Source: an uncultured Gammaproteobacteria bacterium
GTDB taxonomy: Bacteria > Patescibacteriota > Patescibacteriia > SBBC01 > CAIJZX01
NCBI GenBank assembly: GCA_964349465.1
Contig: CAYGGC010000002.1
Location: 28,841-92,840, forward strand
Reading direction: 5' to 3'
DNA: 64,000 bases
Below the pieces are notes generated by a model. That model made no database searches and had not been told where the DNA came from. It saw only the letters and a program-made list of their open reading frames with translations. Position numbers and translations under genes: made by a program. This document shows positions 9,388-41,452 of this stretch, one piece after another; the stretch's first letter is position 1; each line of letters opens with the position of its first letter.

Positions 9388-9451
9388 AGTATCGTATGCC
9401 CTGTCAGATCGCCTATAAGCCGAATTCTGTCCGCCTCCGCCCAAGAGTACA

Positions 9452-25369: not shown

Positions 25370-28192
25370 TTATGAACGAGGGCTAACCACGTGCGCAGCC
25401 GCTTGATGCGGATGTGCCTCGGGCGCGTCAGCATGCGGGACCAAGGGTAGAATAAATTGGAAGGTACTCCCCTTTCCTTCACCATCCGACTCGGCCCAAA
25501 TCCGCCCGCCGTGGGCGTCGATAATGGATTTCGCAATAAATAAACCAAGTCCCGATCCATCAGGATGGATTTGGGCGATCCCGCTCCCGCGCACAAACTT
25601 GTTAAACAACTCCGTCGCGTCCTGCGGCTTAATACCAATACCGGTGTCTTTCGCGCGGAAATGAATACGCTCGTCTTCCAGTTCGGCCGTGAGGGTGATT
25701 GAACCTTTATCGGTATATTTGATGGCGTTATCGATCAAATTAAGAATGACATCTTGAATTTTATCGGCGTCAACCATAACTTTCGGCAAGGGTGTTTTTG
25801 GAAGCTTATTGAGAATTTTCAAACCCTTATCGTTCGCCGCTTTCGTTACTTCCTTAATTTCACGCACCACTAAATCTTCAAACTGGACTGGCACTTTTGT
25901 ATATGTGAACTTGCCCGCCTCGATTTTTGAGACGTTTAAGAACTGGTTAATTAAGCGAATCATCCGCTGTGATTCAGCTAATAAATCGGTCAGAATTTTC
26001 AGGTGATCGGGTTTCATCTTCCCGAAATCTCCCTGGGTCATCATCGACAGATAGCCCATAATCCCGGTCATTGGCGTTCGGAGTTGATGGGACGCGATCG
26101 ACACAAATTCTGACTTCGCACGGTCGAGTTCTTGAAGATGCTTGTTCGCAACTTCGAGCTGTCCGTTCGTTTCCTTCAATTGCGAGAAAAGCGTTAAGTT
26201 CCGCGACACAATCCCGAGTTCGTCGGCCATCGATTGCATCGTCGCGATTTCTTGTGGGGTGATGTCGTGGATAGATTTTTGCAAACCGATCTCAATCACC
26301 CCGATGGTCCTTGATTCCGAAATGATCGGTACTAAAACCATCGATTTCAGGCCCATCAGTTTTTGGATACTCGCACATATAATTTTCGGCAGCGGCGGCG
26401 AGAGAACGTCGCTCATCGAGTCCGTGATTTTTATTTCTCCAGTGCGAATAACCTGATGCCCTAAAGAGTTAGAGGCCGGATCCATGATATCGCTGTGGTA
26501 CGTATCAAACCGCAACGGCAATAATCGCATCGCCTTCTTAGTCAGCGGTGTTTCGGTAATTGCGCGCGCCCGAACCGTCCGACCATCTTGGTCGAGGAAG
26601 ACTAGAATCGCGCCCAGATAGCCAAGCTCAGTTGCGACGCTATTGGCGATATTTTGGACGGCTTGGGAGAAATCGAGTGTTCGCGTGACTTCTTTGGTAA
26701 TATTTTGCAGGGTTTGCAACGAGACATTCCGATCTTCGAGCTTCTCGGTCGCTTCCTTTACTTTCACTTTCAAATTTTCACCAAACTCCCGAACTTCTTC
26801 GAAGAGGTTCGCCTTTTGAATCGCTGATCCAATTTGTGGCGACAGCACTTCAATCAAGTTCACGTCATCGTTGGAGAACGTATCCCCAGAGAGTTTAGAC
26901 CCGAGGACAAGTACGGCAATCAAGTGATCTTGCGCGTAGACCGGCGCAATTAAGGCCGCTCCAAGCTTTTCAAATTCTTCTTTCGACGCAAGCAACGGTC
27001 CGCGTAGCTCTTCTTTCGTATCGTCAATTTTCCGCTCAAGCGATTCATAAATGGCCGGATGACGGTGCTCGCGGAGATAATGCACGAGCTGACTCTCGTT
27101 TTGGAGCACCATGTTTGGGTATTTGCCCAAAAGTTCCGGCAAGGCCTCAAACCGATCCGTGCCGCCATGCGAAGTTCGGCGCAGGAGCGTCGCCGCAAAC
27201 TTGATTTTGAGCTCTTGGGTTAGGGTCGTCCGCAGATCGGTAATCAGTTTTGTCTGATCAAGTTCGAAACTGAGGGTTTCGGAAAGTTTGCGGAGAATCG
27301 CTTGATAATCAATCTTTGCCTTGAAAAAGACTTTGTCGGTTGCTCGTGAAAGAAGCCGCTTGAGTGGATCAAGGCCGAAGACGATGAGAGCGGCGACGAG
27401 GAAGGCTATTGAATTTTGACTAACTTGGCTCTTTTCAAAGAAACGCGCGGAGGTAAACGTAATAAAAACGAAAGAGAGTGTGACGAGGGTCAACAGCAAA
27501 CCATAGATTAATGAACGTGTGGCGACTAGACGGATATCTAGTAGCCTATGCCTTACAATTGCGTAACTAACTAATACAACGAGAAAAAGTGTGCCGAGCG
27601 GTCCAAGGGCAACCAGACTACCGATCCCGATTACCGGCAGTAAAATATTAGTAATAATGCCAAAAAGAGCGGTAATTGCGACTCCAGCAAAAACGTACCT
27701 TATCTGTTGCTTAACTAACCCCGAGGAGCTTAAATATTTTCTAATAAAACTGTAAATCGAAAAAATTATTCCTCCAAAGAAATATAGTAAGAAAAAATAG
27801 TACCCTGGCGCATAAGTTAACTTTGCAGGAAAGATTGTGTTATCTACAGATTCAACAAGGTATCCAAAAAAAATAGTTGGCAACAAAACAATAAATCCCA
27901 CTAAAAAAAATACCAATACTGGTTTTCTTGGGTTAACACCAAACGGGAAGAGATAGCTAAAAAAAAGTATAGATGGAATCATTAGTACCGGTCCAAGAAA
28001 AGTCATTTTTGCCCAAAAAAGCGACCTATTCGGATCAAAGTCAACCAAATAGTTAGCAATTGCCCAAATTGCCAAGGATATCGCGAGGGAGAAAAAAGAA
28101 ATATTTATTTTGGATTTGTGATTTCTGTTTAGAATTAAGAATCCTAAAAAAATAATTGAAGCCGAGACAAAAAGAACTGACAATAGGTACAT
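25370..28192 (-). CDS. Sensor histidine kinase with 7TM, GAF, GAF, HisKA and HATPase domains
   Basis: About 220 aa of multi-pass membrane domain, then two GAF-like regions, an H-box (FVSIASHQLRTPMTGIMGY), an N-box (LNLIDNAIKYT) and G-boxes (DTGIGI, GSGLGL). 940 aa. The 5' roughly 500 nt are strongly AT-rich. Confidence 0.8.
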   Translation of the reverse strand: MYLLSVLFVSASIIFLGFLILNRNHKSKINISFFSLAISLAIWAIANYLVDFDPNRSLFWAKMTFLGPVLMIPSILFFSYLFPFGVNPRKPVLVFFLVGFIVLLPTIFFGYLVESVDNTIFPAKLTYAPGYYFFLLYFFGGIIFSIYSFIRKYLSSSGLVKQQIRYVFAGVAITALFGIITNILLPVIGIGSLVALGPLGTLFLVVLVSYAIVRHRLLDIRLVATRSLIYGLLLTLVTLSFVFITFTSARFFEKSQVSQNSIAFLVAALIVFGLDPLKRLLSRATDKVFFKAKIDYQAILRKLSETLSFELDQTKLITDLRTTLTQELKIKFAATLLRRTSHGGTDRFEALPELLGKYPNMVLQNESQLVHYLREHRHPAIYESLERKIDDTKEELRGPLLASKEEFEKLGAALIAPVYAQDHLIAVLVLGSKLSGDTFSNDDVNLIEVLSPQIGSAIQKANLFEEVREFGENLKVKVKEATEKLEDRNVSLQTLQNITKEVTRTLDFSQAVQNIANSVATELGYLGAILVFLDQDGRTVRARAITETPLTKKAMRLLPLRFDTYHSDIMDPASNSLGHQVIRTGEIKITDSMSDVLSPPLPKIICASIQKLMGLKSMVLVPIISESRTIGVIEIGLQKSIHDITPQEIATMQSMADELGIVSRNLTLFSQLKETNGQLEVANKHLQELDRAKSEFVSIASHQLRTPMTGIMGYLSMMTQGDFGKMKPDHLKILTDLLAESQRMIRLINQFLNVSKIEAGKFTYTKVPVQFEDLVVREIKEVTKAANDKGLKILNKLPKTPLPKVMVDADKIQDVILNLIDNAIKYTDKGSITLTAELEDERIHFRAKDTGIGIKPQDATELFNKFVRGSGIAQIHPDGSGLGLFIAKSIIDAHGGRIWAESDGEGKGSTFQFILPLVPHADAPEAHPHQAAAHVVSPRS

Positions 28193-28197
28193 GTAAA

Positions 28198-28503
28198 TTA
28201 TAGTCTGTTAAAAATACGAAAGATGCCAATTATAACGAGTACCAAAAAAATTAAATATACATATGACGGCAGTTTTTTTGCAAAAAAGAAAACATAGATA
28301 TACGGCACTAGGAATACTATGAGAGTTAATCCAGCTCGTACAATAATCTCAAAAGTCGAGACCTTCAGTGCTACCCCCACAACTAGCCAAGCCATTAGAG
28401 CATAGAAAACGGGCCAGGTTCCAAAGTATAGAATTCCAAAAATTCTGCCATCTAGACCATATTTATTGATTTGCTGATTTTTTTTTCGCAAAAAGTCTAA
28501 CAT
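28198..28503 (-). CDS. Small membrane protein, 101 aa, 3 TM helices
   Basis: Hydrophobic ORF lying 2 nt downstream of the acyltransferase stop and 6 nt upstream of the kinase start. About 33% GC. Confidence 0.5.
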   Translation of the reverse strand: MLDFLRKKNQQINKYGLDGRIFGILYFGTWPVFYALMAWLVVGVALKVSTFEIIVRAGLTLIVFLVPYIYVFFFAKKLPSYVYLIFLVLVIIGIFRIFNRL

Positions 28504-28505
28504 GA

Positions 28506-29213
28506 TTAATGCAAAGAATACCTATAATCTTTCCCATGAGGAGAAAGGGAGCCATTAGATAAAAATTTTAATAGTGATCTATTTTTTTCGTACATCTTTT
28601 CTTCAAACTCATTAACATGGATTACATAAGGAGCTGTAATGCCTTGAAATATTTTGGATTTCCCAATGCGTGTAATTGGGATATTAAACTCTTCGAGGTT
28701 CGGTGTTAGCTTATCATCTAAGACGCAGAAAATATTGTTTAAGTGTCTTTCTTTTACCAGCAAATAAATGCCCTTAATTAATACTAGAAGTAGGTGTTTT
28801 CTTCGATAATTTCTTGCGACTATTAATCTAGAAATTTCTGCGACCTGATTTACATCAACTGGTTGAAGACGATAATCAATTTCGAAATTTCTGAGTATGG
28901 GCAATCCATCATCTGAACCGAGAATAAGCCTAGCTGTTGCAGCGAGATCTCCTGAATTATGTCTTACTACAAGATGAATGGAGTGACGATCAAAAATATC
29001 TTGTTCTCTTTTATTTGGGTAATCTCTGTAGTCTAAGTATCTATATTCTTCACAGTAAACTTTGTAACGAATTCTATAAATTTCTTCTAACTCGTCATGC
29101 TCTGAAGTTGTGTAGAAAGTAAAATTTTTATAGACACTTCTTTCTGCTAATCTTAAATTTATCCCCCCAAAGAAAGGACTCTTTACCAATGCTTTCAAAA
29201 AAATGGAGGGCAT
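28506..29213 (-). CDS. GNAT-fold N-acyltransferase of the autoinducer-synthase/N-acyl-amino-acid-synthase/OlsB superfamily
   Basis: RIRYKVYCEEYRYLDYRDYPNKREQDIFDRHSIHLVV matches the LuxI/FeeM block R..VF..E..W.....E.D.FD..S.HLVV. ATARLILGSDDGLPI...AEISRLIV matches the E.SRL.V block. The start at 29213 overlaps the upstream stop as TAATG. Confidence 0.6.
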   Translation of the reverse strand: MPSIFLKALVKSPFFGGINLRLAERSVYKNFTFYTTSEHDELEEIYRIRYKVYCEEYRYLDYRDYPNKREQDIFDRHSIHLVVRHNSGDLAATARLILGSDDGLPILRNFEIDYRLQPVDVNQVAEISRLIVARNYRRKHLLLVLIKGIYLLVKERHLNNIFCVLDDKLTPNLEEFNIPITRIGKSKIFQGITAPYVIHVNEFEEKMYEKNRSLLKFLSNGSLSPHGKDYRYSLH

Positions 29214-29890
29214 TATTTTTTCAAAACAATATAAGTTGTAGTGGCAAACCAAATCACTGAACTAAGAACGCCATAAAGGAAATTTGGAACAAAGTCGGGG
29301 GAAAAAATAGGCCAAATCAGATCGATAAATACCGCGGGCAATCCACCGATGATCACAGACAAAAGGACTAAAAAAACATTTTTGCCGTTTAACCCATCGT
29401 TTCTTTTTGATTGCTTGAATAGCAGTCCTACTGCTAATAAGTAGAGAGAGAGTAAAAGCACATTGTAAAAAGGGAGTAGAGGTCCTGCGACTACCCTCCC
29501 TACGTTTGTTGTAGAGGCAACATAATCCAACTCTATAGTTCGTGTTGTAAGAGCGATTATTGAAAATAGTGCTGCGGGCAAATACATCAATGTTCTATGA
29601 AGTCTATCCAAATGAACTAGCGGAAGTGGAAATACAATGGCCAAATGGACTAGTGACGTAAGTAAAAAAATTCCAAAAACATACACAAAGGAATTGATTA
29701 TGAGAGATGCTTCTAGGCTGTAGGCCAACAAGCCGCTGAAAATCACCCACAACCCCGTACTCAAAGCCAACAACGCCATCACCTTCCGAATTTCACTCTT
29801 CGAGTGCGTCACCCAAAAGAAAATTGCGAGGATTAACTCCCCAATCCCAACAAGGTAGGTGGCTGTAAGTAAAAAGGTTTTCATTTCCAT
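29213..29890 (-). CDS. Stand-alone 7TM membrane protein, paralogue P1 of the kinase sensor domain
   Basis: 225 aa with seven predicted TM helices. It shares MK...ATYLxGxGE..L..FFW.T, FPLP, GGLP and a terminal YIVLKK with P2 and P3. Confidence 0.6.
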   Translation of the reverse strand: MEMKTFLLTATYLVGIGELILAIFFWVTHSKSEIRKVMALLALSTGLWVIFSGLLAYSLEASLIINSFVYVFGIFLLTSLVHLAIVFPLPLVHLDRLHRTLMYLPAALFSIIALTTRTIELDYVASTTNVGRVVAGPLLPFYNVLLLSLYLLAVGLLFKQSKRNDGLNGKNVFLVLLSVIIGGLPAVFIDLIWPIFSPDFVPNFLYGVLSSVIWFATTTYIVLKK

Positions 29891-29891
29891 A

Positions 29892-30566
29892 TTATTTCTT
29901 CAACACAATATAGGAAGTTACGCCAAGCCATACAAGTGTCGCTGAGGTGCCGTACAGAGGATCTTTAGCATACCCCGTAAACAAAGGAATGATCAGGTCA
30001 TTAATGACTCCCGGAAGACCCCCTAGGACAAAGGACAAAGCCACTGGCAGAAGGGTGTGACGATATGTGACATCAGCTTTTCTCAATCGGTATAACAATA
30101 TTCCAATAGCCAGTGTATACAGTGCGATAAGGTATATATTGTAATACTGGAAGAGCGGACCGCCGTGCCAGGCGCCCTGAAATGTTGAGGAGGAAACGTA
30201 ATAATTGAGGACAGTATTCGTTCCAAAAATCTCGAAAGAAAAAATAATGGCCGGGATAAAGAGCAGAAAAATATGAAAGCGATCTATACGAATTATTGGT
30301 AATGGAAAAAGGAGAGAAAAAAGCAAAACGGCGGTTACCATGAAAACTCCAAAGGCGTATGTCAGTCGAGGTAATAGGTTTTGCGCCGTAGCATTTTCAG
30401 TATACGCAGCGCCAACGGTTGAGAGTACCCATGCGCCTGTTACGATCGCAAGGAAACCAAGTATCTTTCGAATAATTTGGTTTCCATTCGTTTTCCAAAA
30501 AAACAATCCGAGGAGAACTTCTCCTAGTCCAATCAGATACGTTGCAATGATTGCGAGTTCTTTCAT
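29892..30566 (-). CDS. Stand-alone 7TM membrane protein, paralogue P2
   Basis: Start MKELAIIATYLIGLGE. It ends SYIVLKK. Its ATG overlaps the P3 stop as ATGA. Confidence 0.6.
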   Translation of the reverse strand: MKELAIIATYLIGLGEVLLGLFFWKTNGNQIIRKILGFLAIVTGAWVLSTVGAAYTENATAQNLLPRLTYAFGVFMVTAVLLFSLLFPLPIIRIDRFHIFLLFIPAIIFSFEIFGTNTVLNYYVSSSTFQGAWHGGPLFQYYNIYLIALYTLAIGILLYRLRKADVTYRHTLLPVALSFVLGGLPGVINDLIIPLFTGYAKDPLYGTSATLVWLGVTSYIVLKK

Positions 30567-31222
30567 TTCTTCACCAAAATATATCCGGTCAAGCACAGCC
30601 AAACCGAGGTAAACAACGATCCAATAAAACCGTATTTCGTGGCCGCATTCAACGGCAAGGCGATATCAAACACCGCCGAAACCACAAGCGAGACCACGAT
30701 ACCGATCGTCACCAGCTGGGTATTTCGACGATGCAACCCGTCGGCCCGCCGCCAGGCGCGCACCAAGTTCACCAACGACCACAGCCAATACAGCCCGAAA
30801 ACGACGATCAGGAGCCAGAACAACTCGCCGGTTGCTGTCGCGTACCCAGGGCCGAAGGCAACAATACTTGAACGAGCGACAAAAATATCGGTCAGCAGGA
30901 GCCCTGGAATGAAGATCGCCGCTGGCCACAGTACCCAGGGAACGAGCTCATGATTTCCCCTCGTCGGTAGAGGGAAGGAAAAGCTAAAGGGTAAGAACAG
31001 CACCGCAGTCATCAATCCCCCGGTCCAAGCCAAGTGCTCGGCGGTGTCGCCACTGATCCACTGTCCAAGATACCCAAGCCCGTTCGCCCCCACATATAGG
31101 GCAACCGCGAAGCAAAACAAGCCATACCACATGGTCGCCTGGTTTTTCTGGTATTTCGTTAGGAACCAAAAGCCCAGCCAAACTTCAGCCAGGGCGATCA
31201 CGATTAACAGCCAGCCAATCAT
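30563..31222 (-). CDS. Stand-alone 7TM membrane protein, paralogue P3 (GC-normal copy)
   Basis: 219 aa. Contains FSFPLP and ends GYILVKK. Its GC is about 55%, unlike P1, P2 and the acyltransferase. Confidence 0.6.
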   Translation of the reverse strand: MIGWLLIVIALAEVWLGFWFLTKYQKNQATMWYGLFCFAVALYVGANGLGYLGQWISGDTAEHLAWTGGLMTAVLFLPFSFSFPLPTRGNHELVPWVLWPAAIFIPGLLLTDIFVARSSIVAFGPGYATATGELFWLLIVVFGLYWLWSLVNLVRAWRRADGLHRRNTQLVTIGIVVSLVVSAVFDIALPLNAATKYGFIGSLFTSVWLCLTGYILVKK

Positions 31223-31422: not shown

Positions 31423-32085
31423 CTACTGAGAAAAGCTAGTGAGGGCTTTCTGCATGTCCGCATCAGAAATATCGGCGGATCCGAAGGAAATGAGATATTT
31501 CGGGGTAATAAAGAGATAGTAATAGCCATACGGCCAAGCATCTGTGTCTCGTTGTACGGTACGAAAAACCTGTTGACCGTTCAGTGTCAGTACATCAGAC
31601 GTGAGCACTCCCCGATCCCACATATACTGATCGAGAATTGTTGCCTGAGATTGGCTATCAAGATTCGTGAGGTTATTATTGTTTGGGTATACCTCAAGTA
31701 CAATTTCATCACTTGGGTTAGGATTAAATCCTACCAATGTATCTCGATTGCGTTCAATCCCCGTATTCAAATTCTGCCGACTAAATCTAGCCGCATACGC
31801 AGCCTTTTCTCCGCCGGGAAAATGCGTCATCGAAAAACTCTTATCAAGTTCCAACGAAAAACCATATTTCTCGCTAACATATTTTGTATACCCCGGTAAA
31901 CTTTCAACTGTTGACGTTTTAAGATCTTTTTCGGAACCCCATACTTTTTGTGTAGTCGTATTACTCGTAGTGTTACTATGTAACGATTTGTCTGTGGTTT
32001 TTGCCGTTTGCCGCGTAAACACAAAAACGAACAGAGCAATACAAAGAGTAGCTCCAATGGTTGCAAGGTAAATTATTTTTTTCAT
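31423..32085 (-). CDS. Membrane-anchored secreted protein, Ser/Thr/Asn-rich linker
   Basis: N-terminal TM/signal anchor (IIYLATIGATLCIALFVFVF). No recognised domain. Translationally coupled to the gene upstream. Confidence 0.5.
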   Translation of the reverse strand: MKKIIYLATIGATLCIALFVFVFTRQTAKTTDKSLHSNTTSNTTTQKVWGSEKDLKTSTVESLPGYTKYVSEKYGFSLELDKSFSMTHFPGGEKAAYAARFSRQNLNTGIERNRDTLVGFNPNPSDEIVLEVYPNNNNLTNLDSQSQATILDQYMWDRGVLTSDVLTLNGQQVFRTVQRDTDAWPYGYYYLFITPKYLISFGSADISDADMQKALTSFSQ

Positions 32086-32777
32086 TGTCCGTCCCCCATC
32101 ATTAATCGAACGATCGCGTCGAATGTATTTCTGTACATTGAAACCCGTAGCTCAACACCATCGGACTGATTATACCAGCTCCCAAGTAAAGAATATGCCG
32201 ACCCGTCAGATAGAGTTACCTTACAGACTCGGTCGAATTTAGTGTTAAAGCAGCTAATCGTTCGATTATTCTTGCTACCATAGATTTCGTCAGAAGTCAC
32301 TTGATCTTGTATAAAGGACAGGGGTAAAAAAATTGTAGTGTATGCAGGTGGTGTAGGCACAGTCTCGCCATCTGCTGGTATCTTTTGAACTACAAACACT
32401 GGCGCGTCATTGAGGCCTTCGCATTGCGTAACGCCTTCCATAAGGTAGACAGTGTCCTCATCCAGAGACGAGGGGCAGGCAAAGAAGGAGGTCGAGTATT
32501 TAAAACAAATTGAATCATTCACGCAGTATTTCCGGAAGCCTTTTGTGTCAGGAGTGGAAAAAGAGTTTTCATAAGGGATTTGCTTACCCGACGCTATGAC
32601 GGCTGGACCACGTTCGCGCTGATCAGTTGTGTTGATATTATTGAACGACTCGACATTTTTGTCAGACGATACATTATTAGTTAAATGTGTCTCTTCTTTT
32701 TGGGATAACAAAATTCCACCGGTGATGGTTATCAATAATAGAAGTAATCCGATAGGGATATAAGTGTTTGCTTTCAT
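32082..32777 (-). CDS. Membrane-anchored, Cys-rich secreted protein
   Basis: N-terminal anchor (IPIGLLLLLITITGGILL). Ten Cys in the extracytoplasmic part. No recognised domain. Confidence 0.5.
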   Translation of the reverse strand: MKANTYIPIGLLLLLITITGGILLSQKEETHLTNNVSSDKNVESFNNINTTDQRERGPAVIASGKQIPYENSFSTPDTKGFRKYCVNDSICFKYSTSFFACPSSLDEDTVYLMEGVTQCEGLNDAPVFVVQKIPADGETVPTPPAYTTIFLPLSFIQDQVTSDEIYGSKNNRTISCFNTKFDRVCKVTLSDGSAYSLLGSWYNQSDGVELRVSMYRNTFDAIVRLMMGDGQ

Positions 32778-32802
32778 ACCGAATGAATGAGAATAGAGTT
32801 GT

Positions 32803-32849
32803 TATTGAAAAAATTACCGGGTACAAGAGTATAGTACCCTTGTACCCGG
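32803..32849 (-). terminator. Intrinsic terminator 3' of the CHAP lipoprotein gene
   Basis: On the minus strand, CCGGGTACAAG-ggtactatact-CTTGTACCCGG is an 11-bp stem followed by TAATTTTTTC. Confidence 0.55.
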
Positions 32850-32863
32850 CGACTGTGAAGGCG

Positions 32864-33649
32864 TCAGTATCCGAGGTTCAAAGCCCTGTAATTCGCCAGG
32901 TTGCCCACTCCGGACCCGGACGTCACGGCGATGACATGCATCCCGATTTCCTCGTCGCCGATGAAGTTCGAGTCGACGACAACCACCTTCCGAACCGAGG
33001 ACCCGGCGGCACCTTCCACGATACCGACTACGATGGCCGTGTGGCCGTTGACCGTATTCGTTTCGATGACGTCACCGACACGAATCTGGTAGTACGGTCT
33101 GGCCGAGCCGCCGTAGGCCGGAAGCTTACTATTCCGAACACCCGCGCGGTACAGGATCAGTGCCGCAAAACTCCGGCACTGCCCGCCGTGGGAACGAACC
33201 GTGCCGGTGTTCTGTCCGGAGCGATTCAAGCTCGTCCATGAGTAGACGTCCATGTTCGAGTAATAGCTCGGCCACCCGGTCCAGAGGGAAGCGTTAACCC
33301 CGTACCAGTCATTGCCCTTGATGACATTGTGAGCATTCGGGTCGCTCAGTAGATACGCCCAGTTACTGCGCTGGACCGTTCCATCCGCCGACAACTGCCA
33401 GTACATATAGCCCCAGTTCTGACGGAGCGCGTAGTAGCACTCGTACTGAATGGCGATACGGTTGTCGGGATGCAGTCGACTCGGCTCCACGCCCGGCTTC
33501 CCGATCCGGCCCGACATCGTGTCGGCCGGCGAAATGGTCTGCTCAGTCGTGATCGACGGCTGCACGGGGTTATCCTTCCCGCAGCTCGTCAGCGTCATCG
33601 GCACCAGTGCCAGCGCAAGCGCCAGCCCCACCACCAGAAACTTCTTCAT
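32864..33649 (-). CDS. Lipoprotein with a C-terminal CHAP-like (Cys/His amidase/peptidase) domain, CHAP-1
   Basis: The start at 33649 (MKKFLVVGLALALALVPMTLTSC, lipobox LTSC) has AGGAAG 8 nt upstream. The catalytic-looking region is GGQCRSFAALILYRAG...GDVIE...GHTAIVVG. Confidence 0.6.
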   Translation of the reverse strand: MKKFLVVGLALALALVPMTLTSCGKDNPVQPSITTEQTISPADTMSGRIGKPGVEPSRLHPDNRIAIQYECYYALRQNWGYMYWQLSADGTVQRSNWAYLLSDPNAHNVIKGNDWYGVNASLWTGWPSYYSNMDVYSWTSLNRSGQNTGTVRSHGGQCRSFAALILYRAGVRNSKLPAYGGSARPYYQIRVGDVIETNTVNGHTAIVVGIVEGAAGSSVRKVVVVDSNFIGDEEIGMHVIAVTSGSGVGNLANYRALNLGY

Positions 33650-34068
33650 TGCACACTTCCTGTTCTGCTCCATGACGGAGCTAGAGGGTTTGGTCGCTGA
33701 GGATCACCTCCTCAGGTGTTCTTGATGAGCTACCGTGAAACGGGCGACGAACTGCCGTTCTGGATCACCTCCCTTCCCTCGCACCAGTTGTTGAATTTGA
33801 GTGCTGAGGTTTTTGAATTGTAATGTGCGTCACGAACCATGATGGTCTTTTTTTGGCGTACACAAAGCACGACTATCAACGCCCACTTTCTGCGTTGAGC
33901 CGTCAGTCCTCACCAAGCATGGTGATATGCCACAGCACCAACTACTCACGAGTGGTGCTGGGCAAGCAAAAACCAGCGGCCCAACTCTCGACACTTTGTC
34001 AGGTTAACAACGTATGAACGTTGTCAGCCCGAGCGAAGTCGAGGGCCAAGCCACTGGTTCGTATGTTC

Positions 34069-34096
34069 ATTGTACTTGACGGAATAGCTGCGTCAA
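34069..34096 (-). promoter_or_regulatory. Promoter plus conserved leader, copy A (drives the long 5'UTR of CHAP-1)
   Basis: On the minus strand, TTGACG, a 16-nt spacer, then TACAAT. The transcript begins with GAACATACGAACCAGTGGCTTGG, which is conserved with copies B and C. Confidence 0.5.
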
Positions 34097-34109
34097 GTGG
34101 AAAACTTGT

Positions 34110-34730
34110 TTATTGTACTACTGCTGATTTGACCACCTTATCTAAAATAGCCATCACATCGCCTCTTCCCTGATTGTATTCAATTTCTACCGTTGGGCGA
34201 TGATCAGAATACCAATAGGTCATCGAGTAACCCACATTGGTCGTCACTTCGATATAGCGCCACTGCTGTTCATGGATTTGCTCGCTACCTTCACGAACAA
34301 TACGTTGACCTGCGGGAAGAGTGGCTTTTATCGACTGAACGAGTTCGACCGCTGAATCAAATTCGTGCTGCATGAACAGTAAACTCGGACTGTCTGGGTA
34401 GCTCACCGGAAATGACCAAGACACCGCGCCTGCCCCTTCGGACTTCGTCATATTTTTTGGGATGGCAAAAGTAAATCCACTATACGGGAAATCTTGCGTG
34501 TCGACCGCCTGAGCAACGACTGTATCCCACGCTCGACTTACATCTGTAGATACATTACCGTTTGCATTGCTGTTTTTTTGTTTCGTGTTCGTCACTGGAG
34601 TATAAAAATTTTTCAATCCAAACCAAACGCCACCTCCGATGACAATAAGCGCGACGATGACCATGAAATTTTTCATACGTAATTGACCAATGATACAAAT
34701 AAAAAAGAAAATAGGGAACAGAGAAATCAT
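34110..34730 (-). CDS. Membrane-anchored secreted protein
   Basis: The start at 34730 has GAGGGGAG 7 nt upstream. An internal MKNFMVIVALIVIGGG start is also possible. No recognised domain. Confidence 0.5.
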   Translation of the reverse strand: MISLFPIFFFICIIGQLRMKNFMVIVALIVIGGGVWFGLKNFYTPVTNTKQKNSNANGNVSTDVSRAWDTVVAQAVDTQDFPYSGFTFAIPKNMTKSEGAGAVSWSFPVSYPDSPSLLFMQHEFDSAVELVQSIKATLPAGQRIVREGSEQIHEQQWRYIEVTTNVGYSMTYWYSDHRPTVEIEYNQGRGDVMAILDKVVKSAVVQ

Positions 34731-34761
34731 ACTCTGCTCCCCTCTTTATGAGAAGGCGCCA

Positions 34762-35658
34762 TCAGTACCAGATACCCGCGCCAGAGACACAACGCCACTT
34801 CGTACCGTTGATCTGGGCGTTGGTCACATAGTGCCGGCCGATCGTCTCATACGCCAGGTAATTGGAATCGCCCACTGTCATCCCGCCACTATCCTTCGTG
34901 ACGCAGACACCAATATGCTGATTCCCGGTCCCGTTGTTGTAGTAGACTATGTCACCTACCTGAGCGCTCAGGGCTGACTGATCGCTGGTAGACGTGTGAG
35001 CCGCCCAGCTCCAGTTTAGTTTGTAACTGCCCCCGGTCGCTCGGTAGAGCAACATAGCCACAAACGCGACGCACTGCGTCCCGCGACCATAACCACCTCT
35101 CATCGCGTAACTATCGGCACTGAGATAGTTAACCCAGTACTCGACCGTGTTCTGCGGCGATGCCATCAGCCCCGGCTTGTCGATACGGCAACAGTTGCAG
35201 ACCGGCGGAATGTCATCCGAGACGCAGGTCTGGAAGGTGTTGAGCGCATAGCGGAGGCCGTTTGCATTCGCATCCGCCGCCGTCGACAACCAGTTCCAGT
35301 TCGACTTCGGACCTGAAGGGCCGACGGTATCGTCCGGCTTAGTCAACCAGGAACGGTTCAGCGAGTACCAGAACTCGTTCCGCACAAAGTACCGTCTCGA
35401 GCCGATCGAGTACGGCTGCATCGACGACTTCCGCAGGGCAGCTGCGGTCGACTCCGCACGAGTGGTGGTGTACGTCAGCGGCGTGAGACCCCGGTAGATC
35501 GACTTGACCGCACCCCAGCTCGTCCGGAGAACTTCATGCTGCAGCGTGGCATTGGCAGCGTAGTCTGGAGTCTGGTCAGTTCCAGCAACGGCTGGTTTCA
35601 CCCACACTGACATAGTTGCCAGCACGATGAGCGACAGGACCATCATCAGCTTTTTCAT
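34762..35658 (-). CDS. Secreted CHAP-like domain protein, CHAP-2 (paralogue of CHAP-1)
   Basis: Signal peptide MKKLMMVLSLIVLATMSVWVKPAVAG. The Cys/His region is GTQCVAFVAMLLYRATG...GDIVYY...QHIGVCV. Confidence 0.6.
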   Translation of the reverse strand: MKKLMMVLSLIVLATMSVWVKPAVAGTDQTPDYAANATLQHEVLRTSWGAVKSIYRGLTPLTYTTTRAESTAAALRKSSMQPYSIGSRRYFVRNEFWYSLNRSWLTKPDDTVGPSGPKSNWNWLSTAADANANGLRYALNTFQTCVSDDIPPVCNCCRIDKPGLMASPQNTVEYWVNYLSADSYAMRGGYGRGTQCVAFVAMLLYRATGGSYKLNWSWAAHTSTSDQSALSAQVGDIVYYNNGTGNQHIGVCVTKDSGGMTVGDSNYLAYETIGRHYVTNAQINGTKWRCVSGAGIWY

Positions 35659-35950
35659 TGCCGATTTCCATTTCTGCTCGAAGAACGAGCAAAGAGTTTT
35701 TGAGATGAGACAATCTCATCTCGATGTGACCATCACGTCTATTCCCACGGTACTACAACCTCGAACGCCTCCTTTTTGGATTGGAATGAACAACCCGAAC
35801 CAGGTTTGTCGTAACTCAAGCACATAAAACAAGCGGTTCAAGCCGCGGTTTTCTCACCTGTGTGGTTTACGAAAAACCAGCAGCTCGACGCTGAACTGTT
35901 CTCCCCTGTTTCGGAGAGAGTTCAGAACCAAGCCACTGATTCGTACATGT

Positions 35951-35978
35951 ATTTTACTCCGGTAAAAAGTAATGTCAA
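35951..35978 (-). promoter_or_regulatory. Promoter plus conserved leader, copy B (about 285-nt 5'UTR of CHAP-2)
   Basis: On the minus strand, TTGACA, a 16-nt spacer, then TAAAAT. The transcript begins with ACATGTACGAATCAGTGGCTTGG. Confidence 0.5.
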
Positions 35979-36318
35979 GTGCATAAAATCGAGCTTGTCC
36001 CGAGATCCTGAGTTTGTCGAAGGGCGAGGGATCAAGTGGATAAGTACATACCTACCCTCTCCCCATCGCCCGATCCACTGATCCCGATAGACAAAGTATT
36101 GGTGGTTCCCGATACTTAGTAAAAAGTAGCGGATTCCTGGGACCAATGTGCTGGTACGACGGAGAGGGGGCAGCCCCGCACCGTCCGACCTCCCCTTTGA
36201 CCCTCCCCCTACGAGGAGGGATCGGAATGGTCGAGCCAATTTCTTGGCGGACGGTGCGGCGGACTATTCGTTACCGAGATGCTTCGCGCCTCTCTCCGGC
36301 GCTCAGCATGGAAAACGA

Positions 36319-36732
36319 CTAGTCGTTTTCCACCTCATCAACGTCAACATCCTCTTTCACGAGTTTCGTGTTCACTGAATCCCCGCCCTTCGCCTTGGTA
36401 GTTCGATGGCCAAGCATAATCATATTATCAGCGACAATTTCCTTGACACTCCGTTTTCCACCATCGCGGGTCACATACTTACGCGTCGCCAAACGACCCT
36501 CAACATAGATCTTGCTTCCCTTTTTGACGTACTGACGAACAATATCGCCAAGCTTGCCCCAAGCAATGACGTCATGGAAGTCGACGGCCTCTCGCTTCGC
36601 TTTCGTTTTCGCGTCTTGCCAGGCGTAATTCGTCGCCAAGCTAAACCGAGTAATCTGCTGACCTGATGGCAGCGTTTTCCCTTCTGGATCGCGAACCATG
36701 TTCCCGATCAACGTGACCTTGTTGAGGTCCAT
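36319..36732 (-). CDS. ssb: Single-stranded DNA-binding protein
   Basis: OB-fold N-terminus (MDLNKVTLIGNMVRDPE...TRFSLATN...HDVIAWGKL). The acidic tail ends EDVDVDEVEND rather than the canonical DDDIPF. The stop codon sits in the loop of a perfect 10-bp palindrome. Confidence 0.8.
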   Translation of the reverse strand: MDLNKVTLIGNMVRDPEGKTLPSGQQITRFSLATNYAWQDAKTKAKREAVDFHDVIAWGKLGDIVRQYVKKGSKIYVEGRLATRKYVTRDGGKRSVKEIVADNMIMLGHRTTKAKGGDSVNTKLVKEDVDVDEVEND

Positions 36733-36894
36733 ACAAAAATCCTTTCTTGCCCCGCGCCGATACGGCGCGGTGGCTTATCCAGCACTTCAATCCTGAGCTA
36801 GCCGAAGGATTGTGGTGCTGGGCGCCAAGCCCGCGATCTGTCTTCGTCCCCGCCCACCAATCGCGCGGAGATGAGGACGGATTTTTTGCCTCGC

Positions 36895-37374
36895 TCACTG
36901 ATGACTGCCGTGTTCGTACACTACCCACCGAAAAGAAAGATGCCCACCGAGAAGTCCGATCAAAGGTGCAACAAGAGAAATTATTCCCAGTTGAAAACTT
37001 TTTGCATGCTGTATATATTTTGCTGAGTTTCCAGTAGTCATCATGACGAGCGGCGGGTTGAAAATTAATATGGCACTTGAAGTAAGGGCGAATAGTATGG
37101 CAATTGTGTATATTTTCAACTTCATTTTTGGATGACCGCTTGAGAGAAGACCCGCGAGTATTGCAACGAGAATCATAGTTGCACACACTGACAGGTAGCG
37201 TAAATAGAATTCACCGTTGGCTGAAGAAAGTTTTGTATGTGCGCAAACACTTTCAATAGAAGGTGTTTTACTATCGCAATAGACAGCTCCTTGGCGAATA
37301 AATCCCGGGGAAAAGTATGTAATAAATCCCAGCAGGATCAGAAGGCCAAATAAATGTTTTCTTGGTGTGGTCAT
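36895..37374 (-). CDS. Multi-pass membrane protein (hypothetical)
   Basis: Hydrophobic ORF starting MTTPRKHLFGLLILLGFI in an AT-rich region. An overlapping ORF in another frame (36641..37186) was rejected. Confidence 0.4.
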   Translation of the reverse strand: MTTPRKHLFGLLILLGFITYFSPGFIRQGAVYCDSKTPSIESVCAHTKLSSANGEFYLRYLSVCATMILVAILAGLLSSGHPKMKLKIYTIAILFALTSSAILIFNPPLVMMTTGNSAKYIQHAKSFQLGIISLVAPLIGLLGGHLSFRWVVYEHGSHQ

Positions 37375-37445
37375 AGAGTATATTGACATACTATCAGACG
37401 TTCACGCTTGATCCTGTCAAACAAGTGCGTCTGAAATCGAAACGA

Positions 37446-37841
37446 CTACGCTACAAGATTGCAAATGATAAATGGGAAATCAGGTTCCCAAACTTGAACT
37501 ACTGTAAAGGAAATGCCTGCAACGATAATTACTATCAGAAGTATCAGTCGTAAATATTTTGGCAAAGGCTTTCGCAAGCCACTTGCCCAGACCAGGAGAG
37601 AAATAAGAATCAGTAAAAAAGTACTAGACACAAACACGCTCATAAAATTTGCCAGGCCTGGCGCAGTAATGGTTTTGCAGATCTTTTGAATAGCTACCGG
37701 ATCGCCATTTGTCACTGCAAGACTTTGTTGAATTTCTGGGTGTTGTTGTGCATACCCATCGTATGAAAATGCTGAAAGCAATAGCCCCAGCGTGCTCATT
37801 GTGAGTATTGGGAGAACAATAGCATGAAGTTTTTTTATCAT
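37446..37841 (-). CDS. Membrane protein (hypothetical), 131 aa
   Basis: An N-terminal signal/anchor and two further TM segments. AT-rich. Confidence 0.45.
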   Translation of the reverse strand: MIKKLHAIVLPILTMSTLGLLLSAFSYDGYAQQHPEIQQSLAVTNGDPVAIQKICKTITAPGLANFMSVFVSSTFLLILISLLVWASGLRKPLPKYLRLILLIVIIVAGISFTVVQVWEPDFPFIICNLVA

Positions 37842-37866
37842 ATGATTAACATGTAGTATAGCAGAA

Positions 37867-37897
37867 AAAGTCTGGAGGAAACGACTAGCATAGTCGT
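37867..37897 (-). terminator. Intrinsic terminator 3' of the secreted-protein gene
   Basis: On the minus strand, GGAGGAAACGACTA-TGC-TAGTCGTTTCCTCC is a 14-bp stem followed by AGACTTTTTCT. Confidence 0.55.
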
Positions 37898-37908
37898 TTC
37901 CTCCATTA

Positions 37909-38424
37909 CTAGTAGGAGTACGTCGTCCAGAGCCAGAAGTACCGTGAAAATTCCCAGTCCGTCAGATAGCCGTACTGAATGCGCAGAGTCTTCGGGATAA
38001 TCAACCGGCAGTCATCCCACCCGTTACCAAGATTCGTGCGGGCCAGAATCCAGTTGTTCAGACCGCCTTCGCAACAGGACGTCGGGATGCCTGCGGACCG
38101 AGTAATCCCGTAGGTGGAATGGGGGATCCGGAACACGATCGTGAAATGCGGCCCCTTCCAGTCCCACTGCCAGTCAGTCCGATAGGCCTGGTAGCCCGTG
38201 TTCTGAACCGCACTCATCTCCGCTCCCGGCCGTACGATCGCGCGACCAGTCTCACTCGAGATGGTCTGAGTCGGAACCGTCTCCGCGGGGGTAGGCACCG
38301 GCTGTGCAAACCTCGTCTTGAGCGCGCCCCAGGTCGTCTTCGTGACGGTCGGTTCCTGCGCGAACGACGGGAACGTGAACAACGTGGCGACAAGCAAAAC
38401 AAGCAACGTGACCAGCCGCTTCAT
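37909..38424 (-). CDS. Secreted protein, 171 aa
   Basis: Signal peptide MKRLVTLLVLLVATLFTFPSFAQE. AAAGGAG lies 5 nt upstream of the ATG. The N-terminal block TTWGALKTRFAQP resembles one in CHAP-2. Confidence 0.5.
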   Translation of the reverse strand: MKRLVTLLVLLVATLFTFPSFAQEPTVTKTTWGALKTRFAQPVPTPAETVPTQTISSETGRAIVRPGAEMSAVQNTGYQAYRTDWQWDWKGPHFTIVFRIPHSTYGITRSAGIPTSCCEGGLNNWILARTNLGNGWDDCRLIIPKTLRIQYGYLTDWEFSRYFWLWTTYSY

Positions 38425-38603
38425 GGCGCTACTCCTTTTGGTAACCCTGAATCAGGTTCAGGGTCTGTAAGGTGCAACAAGCACACGTCGATGTGACGTC
38501 GCTTGCTTCGACATACGCGATCTGCGCATGTCAAAAAATCGGCGACTCGACGGCCAACGGGTTTTCCACCGTCAGCGACCAAGCCACCGATTTCTATGTC
38601 TCT

Positions 38604-38631
38604 AGTTTACTCTTCTGAAACCAACTGTCAA
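38604..38631 (-). promoter_or_regulatory. Promoter plus conserved leader, copy C (upstream of the 37909..38424 gene)
   Basis: On the minus strand, TTGACA, a 16-nt spacer, then TAAACT. The transcript begins with ACATAGAAATCGGTGGCTTGG. Confidence 0.5.
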
Positions 38632-40328: not shown

Positions 40329-40781
40329 CTAATCCCACTCGGAACAGCCGGTACAGTTGCAGGGATCAGCCTGACAGTCGGCGTTCTCCGGCATTGCCCA
40401 GGCGACGAGGTCGAACACGATACCGTGTTCTTCCATGAACCGCCTGGTCCGGAGCGCCCCGCCCTTCGGAGGCAGAACATCCAGTTCGTCGACCGGGACG
40501 TGGTGGATGTACGGCCGGTTGAGCAACCGGCAATACGCTGCGTAGGGCCGGGTGAAGAGGATGAACTCGTGCCAGGCGAGGTCGACTTCCTGGGACGGGA
40601 CAAACTCGTGCCCCGGAAACTGGGCCGCCAGCGTCATGAAGTGACAGGCGGCGTCGAGCATGCGTTCGGCTTCGGTCATCGCGACGTTGTGTTCGCGGCT
40701 GATTCGCGCCGCCACAATGCGCCGGACCTTTTCCGGCAACGGTGGCACGGCCAGCGTCTGGGTACGAACGTTCGTTTCCAT
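40329..40781 (-). CDS. Hypothetical protein with a C-terminal Cys cluster (CNCTGC), possibly DUF1399/GRDP-like
   Basis: The start at 40781 has AGGAGA 7 nt upstream. The VDLAWHEFILFTRPYAAYC block resembles the GRDP-like DLxWHxHxL motif as I recall it. Local GC is about 62%. Confidence 0.45.
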   Translation of the reverse strand: METNVRTQTLAVPPLPEKVRRIVAARISREHNVAMTEAERMLDAACHFMTLAAQFPGHEFVPSQEVDLAWHEFILFTRPYAAYCRLLNRPYIHHVPVDELDVLPPKGGALRTRRFMEEHGIVFDLVAWAMPENADCQADPCNCTGCSEWD

Positions 40782-41452
40782 GATGGTCTCCTGTTGCGAA
40801 GGGACTGCAGTGAACAGCGCGGCCGAAACGTTGGTTCTTCCTTTCCTGTAAAGGGCAATCTTCTGGAGCGGAATCATTCGTTCATCCTCTCCCATCTCCC
40901 CACCGGCGCGGTATAGACAAATTTTGGTGGCTTGGCAATTGGTGATGGAAGGTTCGCCGCGCCGATGGAGAGGTGGGAAAGAACGTTGTTCTACGGAATC
41001 ATCACCTCCCAGCGCCCAGGCGCCACCCCGAGTAGACGACGACCTCGCGGAGGTGAAGCGAGGTCGACAACGGGACGATGAAAATGAGTGGTGAGCTTGG
41101 CCCAGAATCGCGGCCAGCCGGAAAAGCGAAAGATACTCGCCGGACGGCGCTTTTTCTTGATGACGAATTGGTCAATCGATCGATTCATAGACACGATAGT
41201 GAAGTTATCCACGTTGATGGCGACGGCGCTCGAGTGCGACGGCGCAACCTGTCGGGCGTCGATTCGTTGCGTAATACTGGAGTGAACGATGAGATTCATA
41301 CCTGGGCGATGTGTGTTTTAGCGCCGTCGCTATTTTTTGAGACGGCTCATTTATAAATAAATTTTAGCGCGATGATTTTTTTTCGTCAAGATTTTGTACA
41401 TAAAAAAATCAGGGAATGTGTTCCCTGATAACTATCCTACCCAACAATGCTC

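Follow-up and report, generated by a model that had tools for sequence, protein, structure and literature searches.

Predicted exported CHAP-type hydrolases and a recurrent structured leader RNA in a probable surface locus of a Kerfeldbacteria-like bacterium

What would a bacterium of small genome do with a dense run of genes for exported and membrane-anchored proteins, and how would it express them? The question is raised by positions 31423–38631 of a 64-kb stretch of contig CAYGGC010000002.1, which at its full length is called the window here. The original prediction read this block as one island of secreted proteins around two CHAP-type amidases or peptidases. We analysed the gene set with its translations on the minus strand of the block, where nine genes lie (g1–g5, ssb and g7–g9). 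Quite probably, the region is part of a conserved, internally variable surface or secretome locus of a Kerfeldbacteria-like bacterium of the Patescibacteria or candidate phyla radiation (CPR), in which g3 and g5 encode exported CHAP hydrolases and leader-driven cassettes express them.

The two hydrolase genes are the following.

g3: 32864..33649, minus strand; 261 aa, lipoprotein-type CHAP-like hydrolase
g5: 34762..35658, minus strand; 298 aa, CHAP-like hydrolase, predicted to be Sec-secreted

Both exist on the minus strand with the motifs first quoted for them, QCRSFA with C158 and GHTAIV with H203 in g3, and TQCVAF with C196 and QHIGVCV with H248 in g5. They are also mutual paralogues, as had been claimed, with 30% identity over 92 aa in BLASTP (E 2e-8) and homology along the whole mature protein. 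The g3 start at 33649 agrees with the database protein P0010 (100% identity). No third copy of the CHAP family was found within the 64-kb window.

Profile hidden Markov model (HMM) searches, proposed with the original prediction, bore it out for g5 but not for g3 by itself. g5 reaches Pfam CHAP (PF05257) marginally with 27.2 bits (cut-off 26), an E-value of 5.6e-6 and a match to profile positions 4–81 of 81, and also NlpC_P60 (PF00877) with 23.2 bits (cut-off 23). Database relatives carry the precomputed PF05257 assignment. These relatives are few, 9 for g5 and 15 for g3 among 5.8 billion clustered proteins, and the two families are only ~20% identical to each other. In the joint set of 24 sequences from both families, CHAP is matched by 16 members at E ≤ 0.1 and NlpC_P60 by 7.

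The joint alignment of the 24 sequences leaves E95, D129, C196, R206, G235, H248, D264, N266 and H276 invariant in every one (g5 numbering). Two N-terminal motifs are common to both families, E-x-(W/Y)-Y-(A/S)-L and S-N-W-x-(Y/W)-L...D-x-N-A. The third polar residue lies in the motif D264-S-N266 of g5 and D226-S-N228 of g3, whose D and N are invariant and which aligns with the E-S-N of PcsB. The candidate catalytic residues are encoded as follows.

g3 candidate catalytic residues, minus strand: C158 at 33176–33178; H203 at 33041–33043; D226 and N228 at 32966–32974; H238 at 32936–32938
g5 candidate catalytic residues, minus strand: C196 at 35071–35073; H248 at 34915–34917; D264 and N266 at 34861–34869; H276 at 34831–34833

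Against the solved structures, the joint-family profile finds the CHAP domain of PcsB best (9r6w, E 5.9e-6), with gH, (D/E)SN and IGxH aligned. In the pairwise alignment with 4cgk, counted from residue 311, H248, D264 and N266 of g5 fall on PcsB residues 343, 360 and 362, and 343 and 360 are what we take to be the catalytic His and Glu of PcsB. The catalytic set would be a Cys nucleophile at a helix start, a His on the next β-strand and an Asp-Ser-Asn equivalent to the Glu-Ser-Asn of PcsB. The Cys-His pairing is suggested by this alignment together with secondary-structure placement and fold matches.

The AlphaFold model of g5, made on the 24-sequence alignment, has a predicted local distance difference test score (pLDDT) of ~90 over residues 83–297. 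As the original prediction had expected, the model places C196 and H248 in a papain-like arrangement, C196 being the first residue of helix 196–208 and H248 beginning strand 247–256, and its top Foldseek matches are CHAP or NlpC-P60 proteins. The top 20 matches in PDB are all wall hydrolases of this kind and include PlyGRCS, Ly7917, Tae2, MepS/Spr, Acd24020 and LytE, with weak E-values (≥ 0.01) and ~100–126 aligned columns that make up the catalytic core. A search of the viral library gives the CHAP/NlpC-P60 picture again. The model divides into two parts.

g5 residues ~83–190: family-specific helical N-terminal extension
g5 residues ~190–298: CHAP core

Each enzyme would then be composed of an export signal, a disordered linker, a ~110-aa helical extension in which one Glu and one Asp are invariant, and a papain-like domain of the CHAP type. 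The two would cleave amide or peptide bonds of peptidoglycan outside the cytoplasmic membrane. With HMMER, the joint profile finds 366 clusters among 1.84 billion representatives, 185 of them at E ≤ 1e-10, and most are 240–300 aa long and match from profile position ~55 to the end. The extension joined to CHAP is therefore a real but small architecture family. CHAP and NlpC/P60 belong to one clan, so the choice between them is a question of the nearest subfamily, and the motifs fit CHAP better. By HMM, motifs and fold class, g3 and g5 form a divergent subfamily of the CHAP/NlpC-P60 clan and have in addition a conserved domain that neither Pfam nor NCBIfam contains. The enzymes are ordinary in chemistry and the call of wall hydrolases is unsurprising.

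PcsB of Streptococcus pneumoniae (4cgk, 9r6w) is a secreted division-site peptidoglycan hydrolase whose N-terminal domain is a long coiled coil and which acts together with FtsEX. Like the window enzymes it has gH(v/t)A, (E/D)-S-N-y and I-G-x-H, with order and spacing unchanged, and it is a Sec-exported extracytoplasmic enzyme of a monoderm-type envelope, as the window enzymes are predicted to be. It differs in that the window proteins have their own ~110-aa helical extension with the invariant Glu and Asp, and no ftsEX is nearby. Moreover, the acidic triad residue is Asp in the window proteins and Glu in PcsB, identity is low and only the C-terminal half is aligned.

The NlpC/P60 D,L-endopeptidases, E. 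coli MepS/Spr and B. subtilis LytE, share the papain-like fold class (8xud, 2k1g, 8i2d, 8i2e). MepS is a lipoprotein like g3, and LytE with its inhibitor IseA parallels the pairs of hydrolase and partner in the window that are described below. In contrast to these enzymes, g5 barely reaches the NlpC_P60 threshold, and its third catalytic residue and ESN-like motif are CHAP-like.

The phage CHAP endolysins PlyGRCS (8xyf), Ly7917 (5d74) and LysK/CHAPk, with the amidase Tae2 (6win), are the top structural matches to the core. They raise the reading that the block is a remnant of a prophage or another mobile element, its CHAP proteins being endolysins, g7 and g8 holins and ssb a phage replication gene. 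The SSB matches phrog_44 (E 1.4e-40), g8 is very weakly like Phage_holin_2 (E 0.21), and the G+C content of the block is 0.47–0.51 against 0.53–0.55 in the flanks. However, SSB matches phage families because it is universal, and the PHROG search finds nothing for g1–g5 and g7–g9 save one meaningless weak hit. g5 has no protein match in the collection of 50,697 phage genomes, and no sequence-level match to the window enzymes comes from these genomes or from PHROGs.

The block also has no integrase, capsid, tail or terminase gene. The hydrolases bear Sec, lipoprotein or Tat signals, unlike most endolysins, and do not have wall-binding domains of the SH3b or LysM type. Furthermore, the gene order and the position beside an array of HisKA_7TM, FeeM and kinase genes are kept in related genomes although the hydrolases there are only 25–57% identical. 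A phage origin is very improbable and we reject it: there is no phage match at the DNA or protein level, no PHROG match except the universal SSB, and the chromosomal synteny is conserved.

How would the enzymes leave the cytoplasm? Hydrophobic N-terminal signals or anchors, claimed from the outset, are present in g1, g2, g3, g4, g5, g7, g8 and g9. In g3, a positive N-region and a hydrophobic core are followed by the lipobox LTSC at residues 20–23 (pattern [LVI][ASTVI][GAS]C), whose C23 is encoded at 33581–33583 and is the sole invariant N-terminal residue among 15 relatives. The g5 N-terminus reads MKK-hydrophobic-KPAVA/GT and that of g9 MKR-hydrophobic-PSFA/QE, both with small residues at −3 and −1 by inspection and hydropathy. 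Thus g3 would be tethered through a lipid anchor, and g5 would be released once signal peptidase cleaves it.

Downstream of each hydrolase gene comes one that encodes a membrane-anchored protein.

g2: 32082..32777, minus strand; 231 aa, membrane-anchored, 6 Cys; downstream partner of g3-family hydrolases
g4: 34110..34676, minus strand; ~188 aa, membrane-anchored; downstream partner of g5; open reading frame (ORF) reaching 34730

The likely g4 start is the MKNFMVIV at 34676, since the conservation with its homologue in L003 begins at MKNF and a terminator occupies 34742–34713. Here and below the locus is compared with its counterparts on about ten metagenomic contigs of relatives and in one metagenome-assembled genome (MAG) of Candidatus Kerfeldbacteria, L003. 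Homologues of g2 lie directly downstream of g3-family genes in L003, L005, L006 and L007, and a 47%-identical homologue of g4 lies immediately downstream of the g5 homologue in L003. Five genomes have a g2-family gene after the g3-family gene, and two have g4 after g5. Neither g2 nor g4 resembles a known family in Pfam or NCBIfam. The downstream membrane-anchored extracytoplasmic protein may be a cognate modulator of its hydrolase, either an inhibitor or immunity protein or an activator.

Several points weigh against exported wall hydrolases with cognate partners. The HMM and Foldseek scores are marginal, Pfam being just at threshold and all Foldseek E-values ≥ 0.003, and no Pfam model reaches threshold with g3 by itself. 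The ~110-aa helical extension has no structural match by Foldseek and for this reason could alter substrate or function. CHAP/NlpC-P60 folds serve non-peptidoglycan substrates too, and glutathionylspermidine amidase is among the weak matches. The signal calls were made by inspection from hydropathy, the lipobox pattern, AXA-like sites and family conservation, and the partner role is deduced from gene position alone.

The second question is how these genes are expressed. The gaps upstream of g3 and g5 are long, 436 and 660 nt, and the same kind of upstream region is found at g9, an unrelated secreted gene.

g9: 37909..38424, minus strand; 171 aa, predicted to be secreted, signal peptide ...PSFA/QE; fold without assignment
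g3 promoter: 34069..34096, minus strand; sigma-70-like, TTGACG, 16-nt spacer, TACAAT; conserved in the upstream-region alignment
g5 promoter: 35951..35978, minus strand; TTGACA, 16-nt spacer, TAAAAT; best match in 31–42 kb (11/12 positions)
g9 promoter: 38604..38631, minus strand; TTGACA, 16-nt spacer, TAAACT
Terminator-like hairpin after the g3 stop: 32816..32850, minus strand; 16 bp and T-run
Terminator-like hairpin after g5: 34713..34742, minus strand
Terminator-like hairpin after g9: 37873..37905, minus strand; 15 bp and T-run

The three promoters (CTTGAC-N16/17-TAnAnT) and a site near 41.4 kb are the four best sigma-70-like matches in 31–42 kb. A strong terminator-like hairpin lies 5–20 nt past each of g3, g5 and g9, and therefore these genes are separate monocistronic units. 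Each would be a cassette of a near-consensus sigma-70 promoter, a long 5′ untranslated region (UTR) with a hairpin at about +1, and its own terminator.

Between promoter and start codon lies the shared leader. It is listed here with its folding energy and the scores of R1, a covariance model built without the g3 copy.

g3 leader: 33650..34064, minus strand; hairpin and U-run 34064–33966; R1 50.3 bits, E 2.9e-17; −53.4 kcal/mol, z −6.8
g5 leader: 35659..35946, minus strand; hairpin and U-run 35946–35870; R1 69.8 bits; −40 kcal/mol, z −6.3
g9 leader: 38425..38597, minus strand; hairpin and U-run 38597–38532; R1 69.3 bits; −35.6 kcal/mol, z −4.3
Leader and promoter copies in the window, minus strand: 33966–34096, 35870–35978, 38532–38631
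Leader copies in relatives: L002 6023–6121; L003 7578–7676 and 10595–10696; L004 3024–3127; L008 1822–1920 (minus)
Further leader copies in relatives: L009 2042–2141; L011 1147–1245 and 2615–2677

The leader hairpin starts 7–10 nt past the −10 hexamer in all copies. It is 23–30 bp long, its 5′ arm contains the invariant GGUGGCUUGG, and its 3′ end is a U-run, with at least 4 U directly after the G+C-rich stem in all 11 leader copies, which is the sequence pattern of an intrinsic terminator. The window contains the 14-mer AAYCRGTGGCTTGG exactly three times, always upstream of g3, g5 or g9; with two mismatches allowed, 1.5 matches are expected there. The RNAalifold consensus of nine distinct hairpins has 23 pairs, of which 9 show compensatory double changes. 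Many pairs are G-U, so the structure belongs to the sense strand only, and R1 scores the sense strand at 50–78 bits against 14–31 bits for the antisense.

In the Kerfeldbacteria MAG, the two CHAP paralogues each have the leader upstream, and so do the CHAP genes in L002 and L004. R1 detects a diverged copy upstream of the M23 gene of L011 as well (41 bits). A pattern scan of Joint Genome Institute (JGI) metagenomes added four leader loci, ahead of a 212-aa lipoprotein and ssb, and ssb is the gene behind the leader in L010/L011. Thus the leader precedes unrelated exported types (CHAP, M23, the g9 type and the 212-aa lipoprotein) and ssb.

Past the hairpin, the UTR continues for 107–336 nt. Most hydrolase leaders share there a hairpin starting GCUUUGUGUUG, the sequence UUACAAY and an extended Shine-Dalgarno (SD) sequence GGAGGUGAU(C), complementary to the 16S rRNA 3′ end. 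This site lies 54–190 nt ahead of the start codon, and no usable start codon follows it. This start-codon-less GGAGGUGAU(C) is present in the leaders of L002–L008, L011, L012, L015 and g3, usually after UUACAAY and the GCUUUGUGUUG hairpin. GGAGGTGAT occurs only three times in the window, two of them within the g3 leader, and among the related hydrolase leaders nearly all have it 54–190 nt upstream of the start codon.

The three leaders of the window vary in this part. That of g3 has a GCUUUGUGU block, UUACAAU and two start-codon-less GGAGGUGAU sites (33772–33764 and 33711–33703), and the second GGAGGUGAU copy is itself within a small hairpin (CUGAGGAGGUGAUCCUCAG). That of g5 has a second hairpin and then a weaker SD-like GGAGGCG ~114 nt upstream of the ATG. 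The g9 leader has no SD-like site.

Rfam 15 has no match at gathering thresholds over the whole window and none meaningful at E ≤ 5 over 33.5–39.1 kb. The leader is thus a conserved, multi-copy, covarying structured 5′ UTR that is new and has no Rfam counterpart.

Some other explanations of the leader were considered and set aside. Rfam holds cis-regulatory motifs ahead of wall-hydrolase genes, namely the c-di-AMP ydaO riboswitch, lysM-TM7, lysM-Actino and lysM-Prevotella. They too are conserved structured 5′ UTRs before secreted proteins related to peptidoglycan, and one belongs to a CPR lineage, but no Rfam 15 family matches the window leader, and a known riboswitch or RNA motif was rejected on these negative searches. 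A small leader peptide translated from the internal GGAGGUGAU was rejected because no start codon is at a usable distance in 7 of 8 leaders; in L002, an ATG 14 nt from GGAGGUGAU opens an out-of-frame ORF, which we judge fortuitous. A DNA-level operator at GTGGCTTGG is less likely than an RNA, given the sense-only G-U pairs and the sense-strand excess in R1 score.

What would the leader do? It may act as a 5′ mRNA stabiliser, a high-expression module in which a masked 5′ end and ribosome binding block the 5′-exonuclease. This role is our tentative choice, at a little short of an even chance. The review PMC3997798 describes two determinants of long-lived mRNAs in bacteria without RNase E, a 5′-terminal structure and a strong SD without a start codon. 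The stabiliser role is proposed since the predicted layout of the leader matches both of them. The cryIIIA STAB-SD leader of B. thuringiensis and the aprE leader of B. subtilis share with the predicted layout of the window leader a 5′-end stem-loop and a start-codon-less strong SD, which are the two determinants of PMC3997798, as well as a long 5′ UTR and a highly expressed exported product. The likeness is in layout, not in sequence: the window hairpin is much longer, its 5′ arm is invariant and its U-run conserved, and the window leader has extra blocks (the GCUUUGUGUUG hairpin and UUACAAY) and serves several unrelated genes in one genome.

A general high-expression module would also suit the leader copy that precedes ssb in a relative. 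By the same token the leader is not specific to secreted hydrolases, which tells against our picture of hydrolase cassettes. So do two features of the hairpin. A pure stabiliser does not need the invariant run of at least 4 U, which resembles an intrinsic terminator, and this U-run and the invariant 5′ arm together point to termination and recognition by a factor.

These two features lead to the reading of the leader as an attenuator, which is possible but doubtful. The promoter-proximal hairpin with its U-run would terminate transcription by default, and a trans factor binding GGUGGCUUGG would prevent the hairpin and turn on g3, g5 and g9 together. For this factor one may think of an RNA-binding antiterminator comparable to GlpP at the glpD leader, or else of a complementary RNA. 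The G+C-rich stem followed directly by the U-run in 11 of 11 copies is what this mechanism would use, and the invariant 5′ arm with a 3′ arm that drifts via G-U pairs is the pattern expected for a recognition site. The glpD leader, with antitermination and stability control, is a precedent listed in PMC3997798.

However, the hairpin begins at about +1 and there is no room for a cis sensor. The U-run partly pairs with the 5′ A-run, which just lengthens the stem to the 5′ end of the transcript, and stems of 23–30 bp far exceed typical terminators. In addition, ssb, which the leader drives in L010/L011, is not a gene expected to be off by default. Other roles of the leader, such as an RNase III site or a protein operator, take what is left of the probability after the stabiliser and the attenuator.

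A complementary RNA is brought into view by another conserved hairpin, which we call element 2.

Element 2, copy A: 36050..36172, minus strand; between ssb and the g5 promoter; outer arms CCCCCUCUCCGUCG / CGAUGGGGAGAGGG, core CCACCAAUACUUUGUCUAU
Element 2, copy B: ~40878–40990, minus sense; upstream of a 188-aa gene at 40329–40895
Element 2 counterparts, by alignment and consensus fold: L003 ~2525–2635; L004 ~215–320; L011 ~1850–2000 (downstream of ssb)

In its general form, the core reads CCACCAAnAnUUUGUCUAU and the outer arms are rich in C and in G (CCCUCUCC... / ...GGGGAGAGGG). One subtype comes after ssb, and the other is upstream of the 188-aa gene with a 3′ arm that includes the SD region of this gene. 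Element 2 has no Rfam match, copy B (~40.9 kb) being covered at gathering thresholds only.

The loop of copy B is CCAAGCCACC on the gene-sense strand (40927–40936, minus-strand sense), the exact complement of the leader arm GGUGGCUUGG (34046–34059, 35928–35941 and 38579–38592). It is kept in three genomes while the adjoining loop bases vary, which favours the attenuator. On the other side, a single additional match to a 9-mer could well arise within 128 kb of sequence (probability about 0.4). The complementarity could be a coincidence or an RNA-RNA contact. Because the complementary 9–10-mer is missing from the other element 2 copy, we keep the pairing of leader arm and element 2 as an idea of low probability.

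The multi-copy leader has a further consequence. The independent short-read contigs L005, L006, L007, L012, L015 and L016, which come from several samples, stop 110–266 nt upstream of CHAP genes, and L012 begins inside the leader hairpin. This suggests that the leader breaks short-read assemblies just upstream of these genes, which may leave them under-represented, truncated or missing in MAGs.

Is the locus itself conserved, and in what organism? The g5-family alignment has a single match among the GTDB species-representative genomes, a groundwater Candidatus Kerfeldbacteria MAG (contig JACPSJ010000001.1, 857 kb). The small genome supposed by the original prediction is plausible in view of this closest match. 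The MAG encodes an SSB 81% identical to that of the window and has the order ssb, the g5 and g4 homologues, the g3 and g2 homologues and a HisKA_7TM array, with other sequence in between. The same two landmarks in the window are the following.

ssb: 36319..36732, minus strand; single-strand DNA-binding protein, Pfam SSB E 7.5e-34; cytoplasmic housekeeping
Signalling array: 25370–31222, minus strand; same order in L003, L004, L006, L007, L011, L012 and L015

The gene order of the window recurs in L002–L007, L011, L012 and L015. The common order is g9-like and small membrane proteins, ssb, one or two pairs of an exported hydrolase and a membrane-anchored protein, the HisKA_7TM array, FeeM and a histidine kinase. 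Copies of ssb that are 76–81% identical occupy the same position in L003, L004, L008, L010 and L011.

This changes the picture of a run of eight consecutive genes, none housekeeping. There are nine genes, with ssb interrupting between g5 and g7, and the uniform eight-gene island fails because ssb is embedded and syntenic. Likewise the locus is not a single island but several independent transcription units with an adjoining conserved signalling array. The clustering of membrane and secreted genes is nonetheless non-random and runs over ~25.4–39.8 kb: on a crude non-overlapping ORF set, an N-terminal hydrophobic segment is found in 15 of 17 genes there against about 9 of 40 in the rest of the window.

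The signalling array holds 2–5 tandem stand-alone HisKA_7TM membrane proteins, always beside the hydrolase slot and three in number in the window. It also holds a FeeM/autoinducer-synthase-like (GNAT) N-acyl amino acid synthase, a 940-aa 7TM-GAF histidine kinase and a single-domain response regulator. At 28–30 kb, the G+C content is just 36% against ~53% for the window.

While the surroundings are conserved, the content of the hydrolase slot varies among relatives between CHAP, M23 and M10. In L011 the slot has a lipoprotein with Peptidase_M23 (81.5 bits) and then a Cys-rich anchored protein, and L003 has an extra M10 metalloprotease. The suggestion of a secretome module for cell-wall cleavage gains from this synteny, the same slot holding an M23 lipoprotein or an M10 metalloprotease in relatives. 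It is also backed by P0024, in which the lipoprotein N-terminus of the g3 type is fused to an M23 domain.

The N-terminal modules are swapped among the catalytic domains. P0024 has the lipoprotein signal and linker of the g3 type on the M23 peptidase, and a 254-aa protein of L005 (2121–2885) has a g9-like N-terminus and a CHAP C-terminus. The g3, g5 and g9 families share a post-signal motif (T/S)(T/S)WGx(L/V)K and a K/RPG motif (g9 residues 30–40 and g5 residues 46–57); in g9 they read TTWGALK and RPG and are followed by a Trp-rich C-terminal domain of ~95 aa. Only 7 relatives of g9 are found among the 5.8 billion proteins, some with lipoboxes.

In L003, the homologues of both paralogues have an identical Tat-type lipoprotein signal (MSLNRRQFVRLA...), and 52 nucleotides around the start codon are identical (7877–7928 and 10859–10910). 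This identity suggests gene conversion of the 5′ region there. The L003 homologue of g3 is broken into two frames (10641–11384 and 11418–11723) by a frameshift or an assembly error.

Whose wall would be attacked? We lean slightly to the cell's own. Lipid anchoring, the likeness to PcsB, MepS and LytE, and the stable synteny beside ssb favour autolysis of this kind. The CHAP paralogues, with the M23 and M10 enzymes of relatives, may instead be host-directed weapons, the lytic effectors of an episymbiotic CPR cell, with g2 and g4 as immunity proteins. The families are very rare and fast-evolving, as their 9 and 15 relatives and the low identity between paralogues indicate. The slot content differs between close relatives, the N-terminal modules are shuffled, and the pairing of hydrolase and partner genes is strict. 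Tae2, among the fold matches, is an amidase effector of the type VI secretion system, and the cultivated Patescibacteria are described as obligate epibionts.

The same evidence can be read the other way. Monoderm autolysins diversify too and have dedicated inhibitors, LytE with IseA being among the fold matches, and the terminator after g3 separates it from g2. Moreover, g3 and many relatives are lipoproteins and would be held on the producer's own membrane. The locus has no secretion-apparatus gene or toxin-delivery domain, and no host is known. We regard host-directed weapons as rather unlikely, and a non-peptidoglycan substrate takes the small remainder after the two walls.

A more far-reaching combination was also considered. 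The shared leader would mark a co-regulated exported set of wall-degrading enzymes (CHAP, M23 and the g9 type), whose hairpin is off by default until GGUGGCUUGG is captured by a trans factor, possibly the CCAAGCCACC loop RNA at 40.88–40.99 kb. The set would be coupled to the signalling array and consist of host-directed effectors with immunity partners. All this together is improbable.

The remaining genes of the block are the following.

g1: 31423..32085, minus strand; 220 aa, N-terminal membrane anchor (hydrophobic residues 1–26), Asn/Thr-rich linker
g7: 36895..37389, minus strand; 164 aa, multi-pass membrane protein, 4–5 hydrophobic segments; weak homologue in L010
g8: 37446..37841, minus strand; 131 aa, signal peptide and two C-terminal membrane helices

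g1 has no match in Pfam, NCBIfam or PHROG and no homologue in the related loci, and NCBIfam has zero matches for all nine block proteins. A weak homologue of g8 is present in L004, downstream of the g9 homologue there. The Ser/Thr/Asn-rich linkers and the Cys richness noticed at first are as described, the linkers in g1, g2 and g4 and the Cys richness in g2 (6 Cys) and g5 (7 Cys).

The ssb gene stands alone within the secretome block, apart from any rpsF or rpsR gene, and keeps this place in all relatives; its product has an acidic C-terminus (...DVDVDEVEND) without the usual DDDIPF tip. Almost all genes of the window are on the minus strand. Two RNA genes were found outside the block.

RNase P RNA, bacterial class A: 9400–9884, minus strand; 485 nt against a 367-position model, 193.7 bits, and therefore with sizeable insertions
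tRNA-Gln(CTG) gene: 45714–45785, minus strand

Patescibacteria depend on contact with other cells and, to our knowledge, almost nothing is known of how they remodel their own wall or breach that of a host. Our literature search found no paper on CHAP/NlpC hydrolases of Patescibacteria, on this locus organisation or on these leaders. Beyond the enzyme call, the analysis adds a conserved but variable hydrolase slot, a partner pairing and a new leader RNA. What it shows is homology, motifs, fold class, synteny and the structure and covariation of the leader; enzymatic activity, the route of export, the role of the partners, the way the leader works and the wall attacked are deduced from these.

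The leader is the more unexpected result: it gives an uncultivated lineage independent expression cassettes. Should it act as a stabiliser, the STAB-SD and 5′-hairpin logic would reach beyond Firmicutes, and CPR genetics might gain an expression tool from the leader. As an attenuator, it would define a regulon. The lineage-specific CHAP subfamily with its conserved extra domain, the fixed partners and the slot of CHAP, M23 or M10 are concrete candidates for the cell-contact interface.

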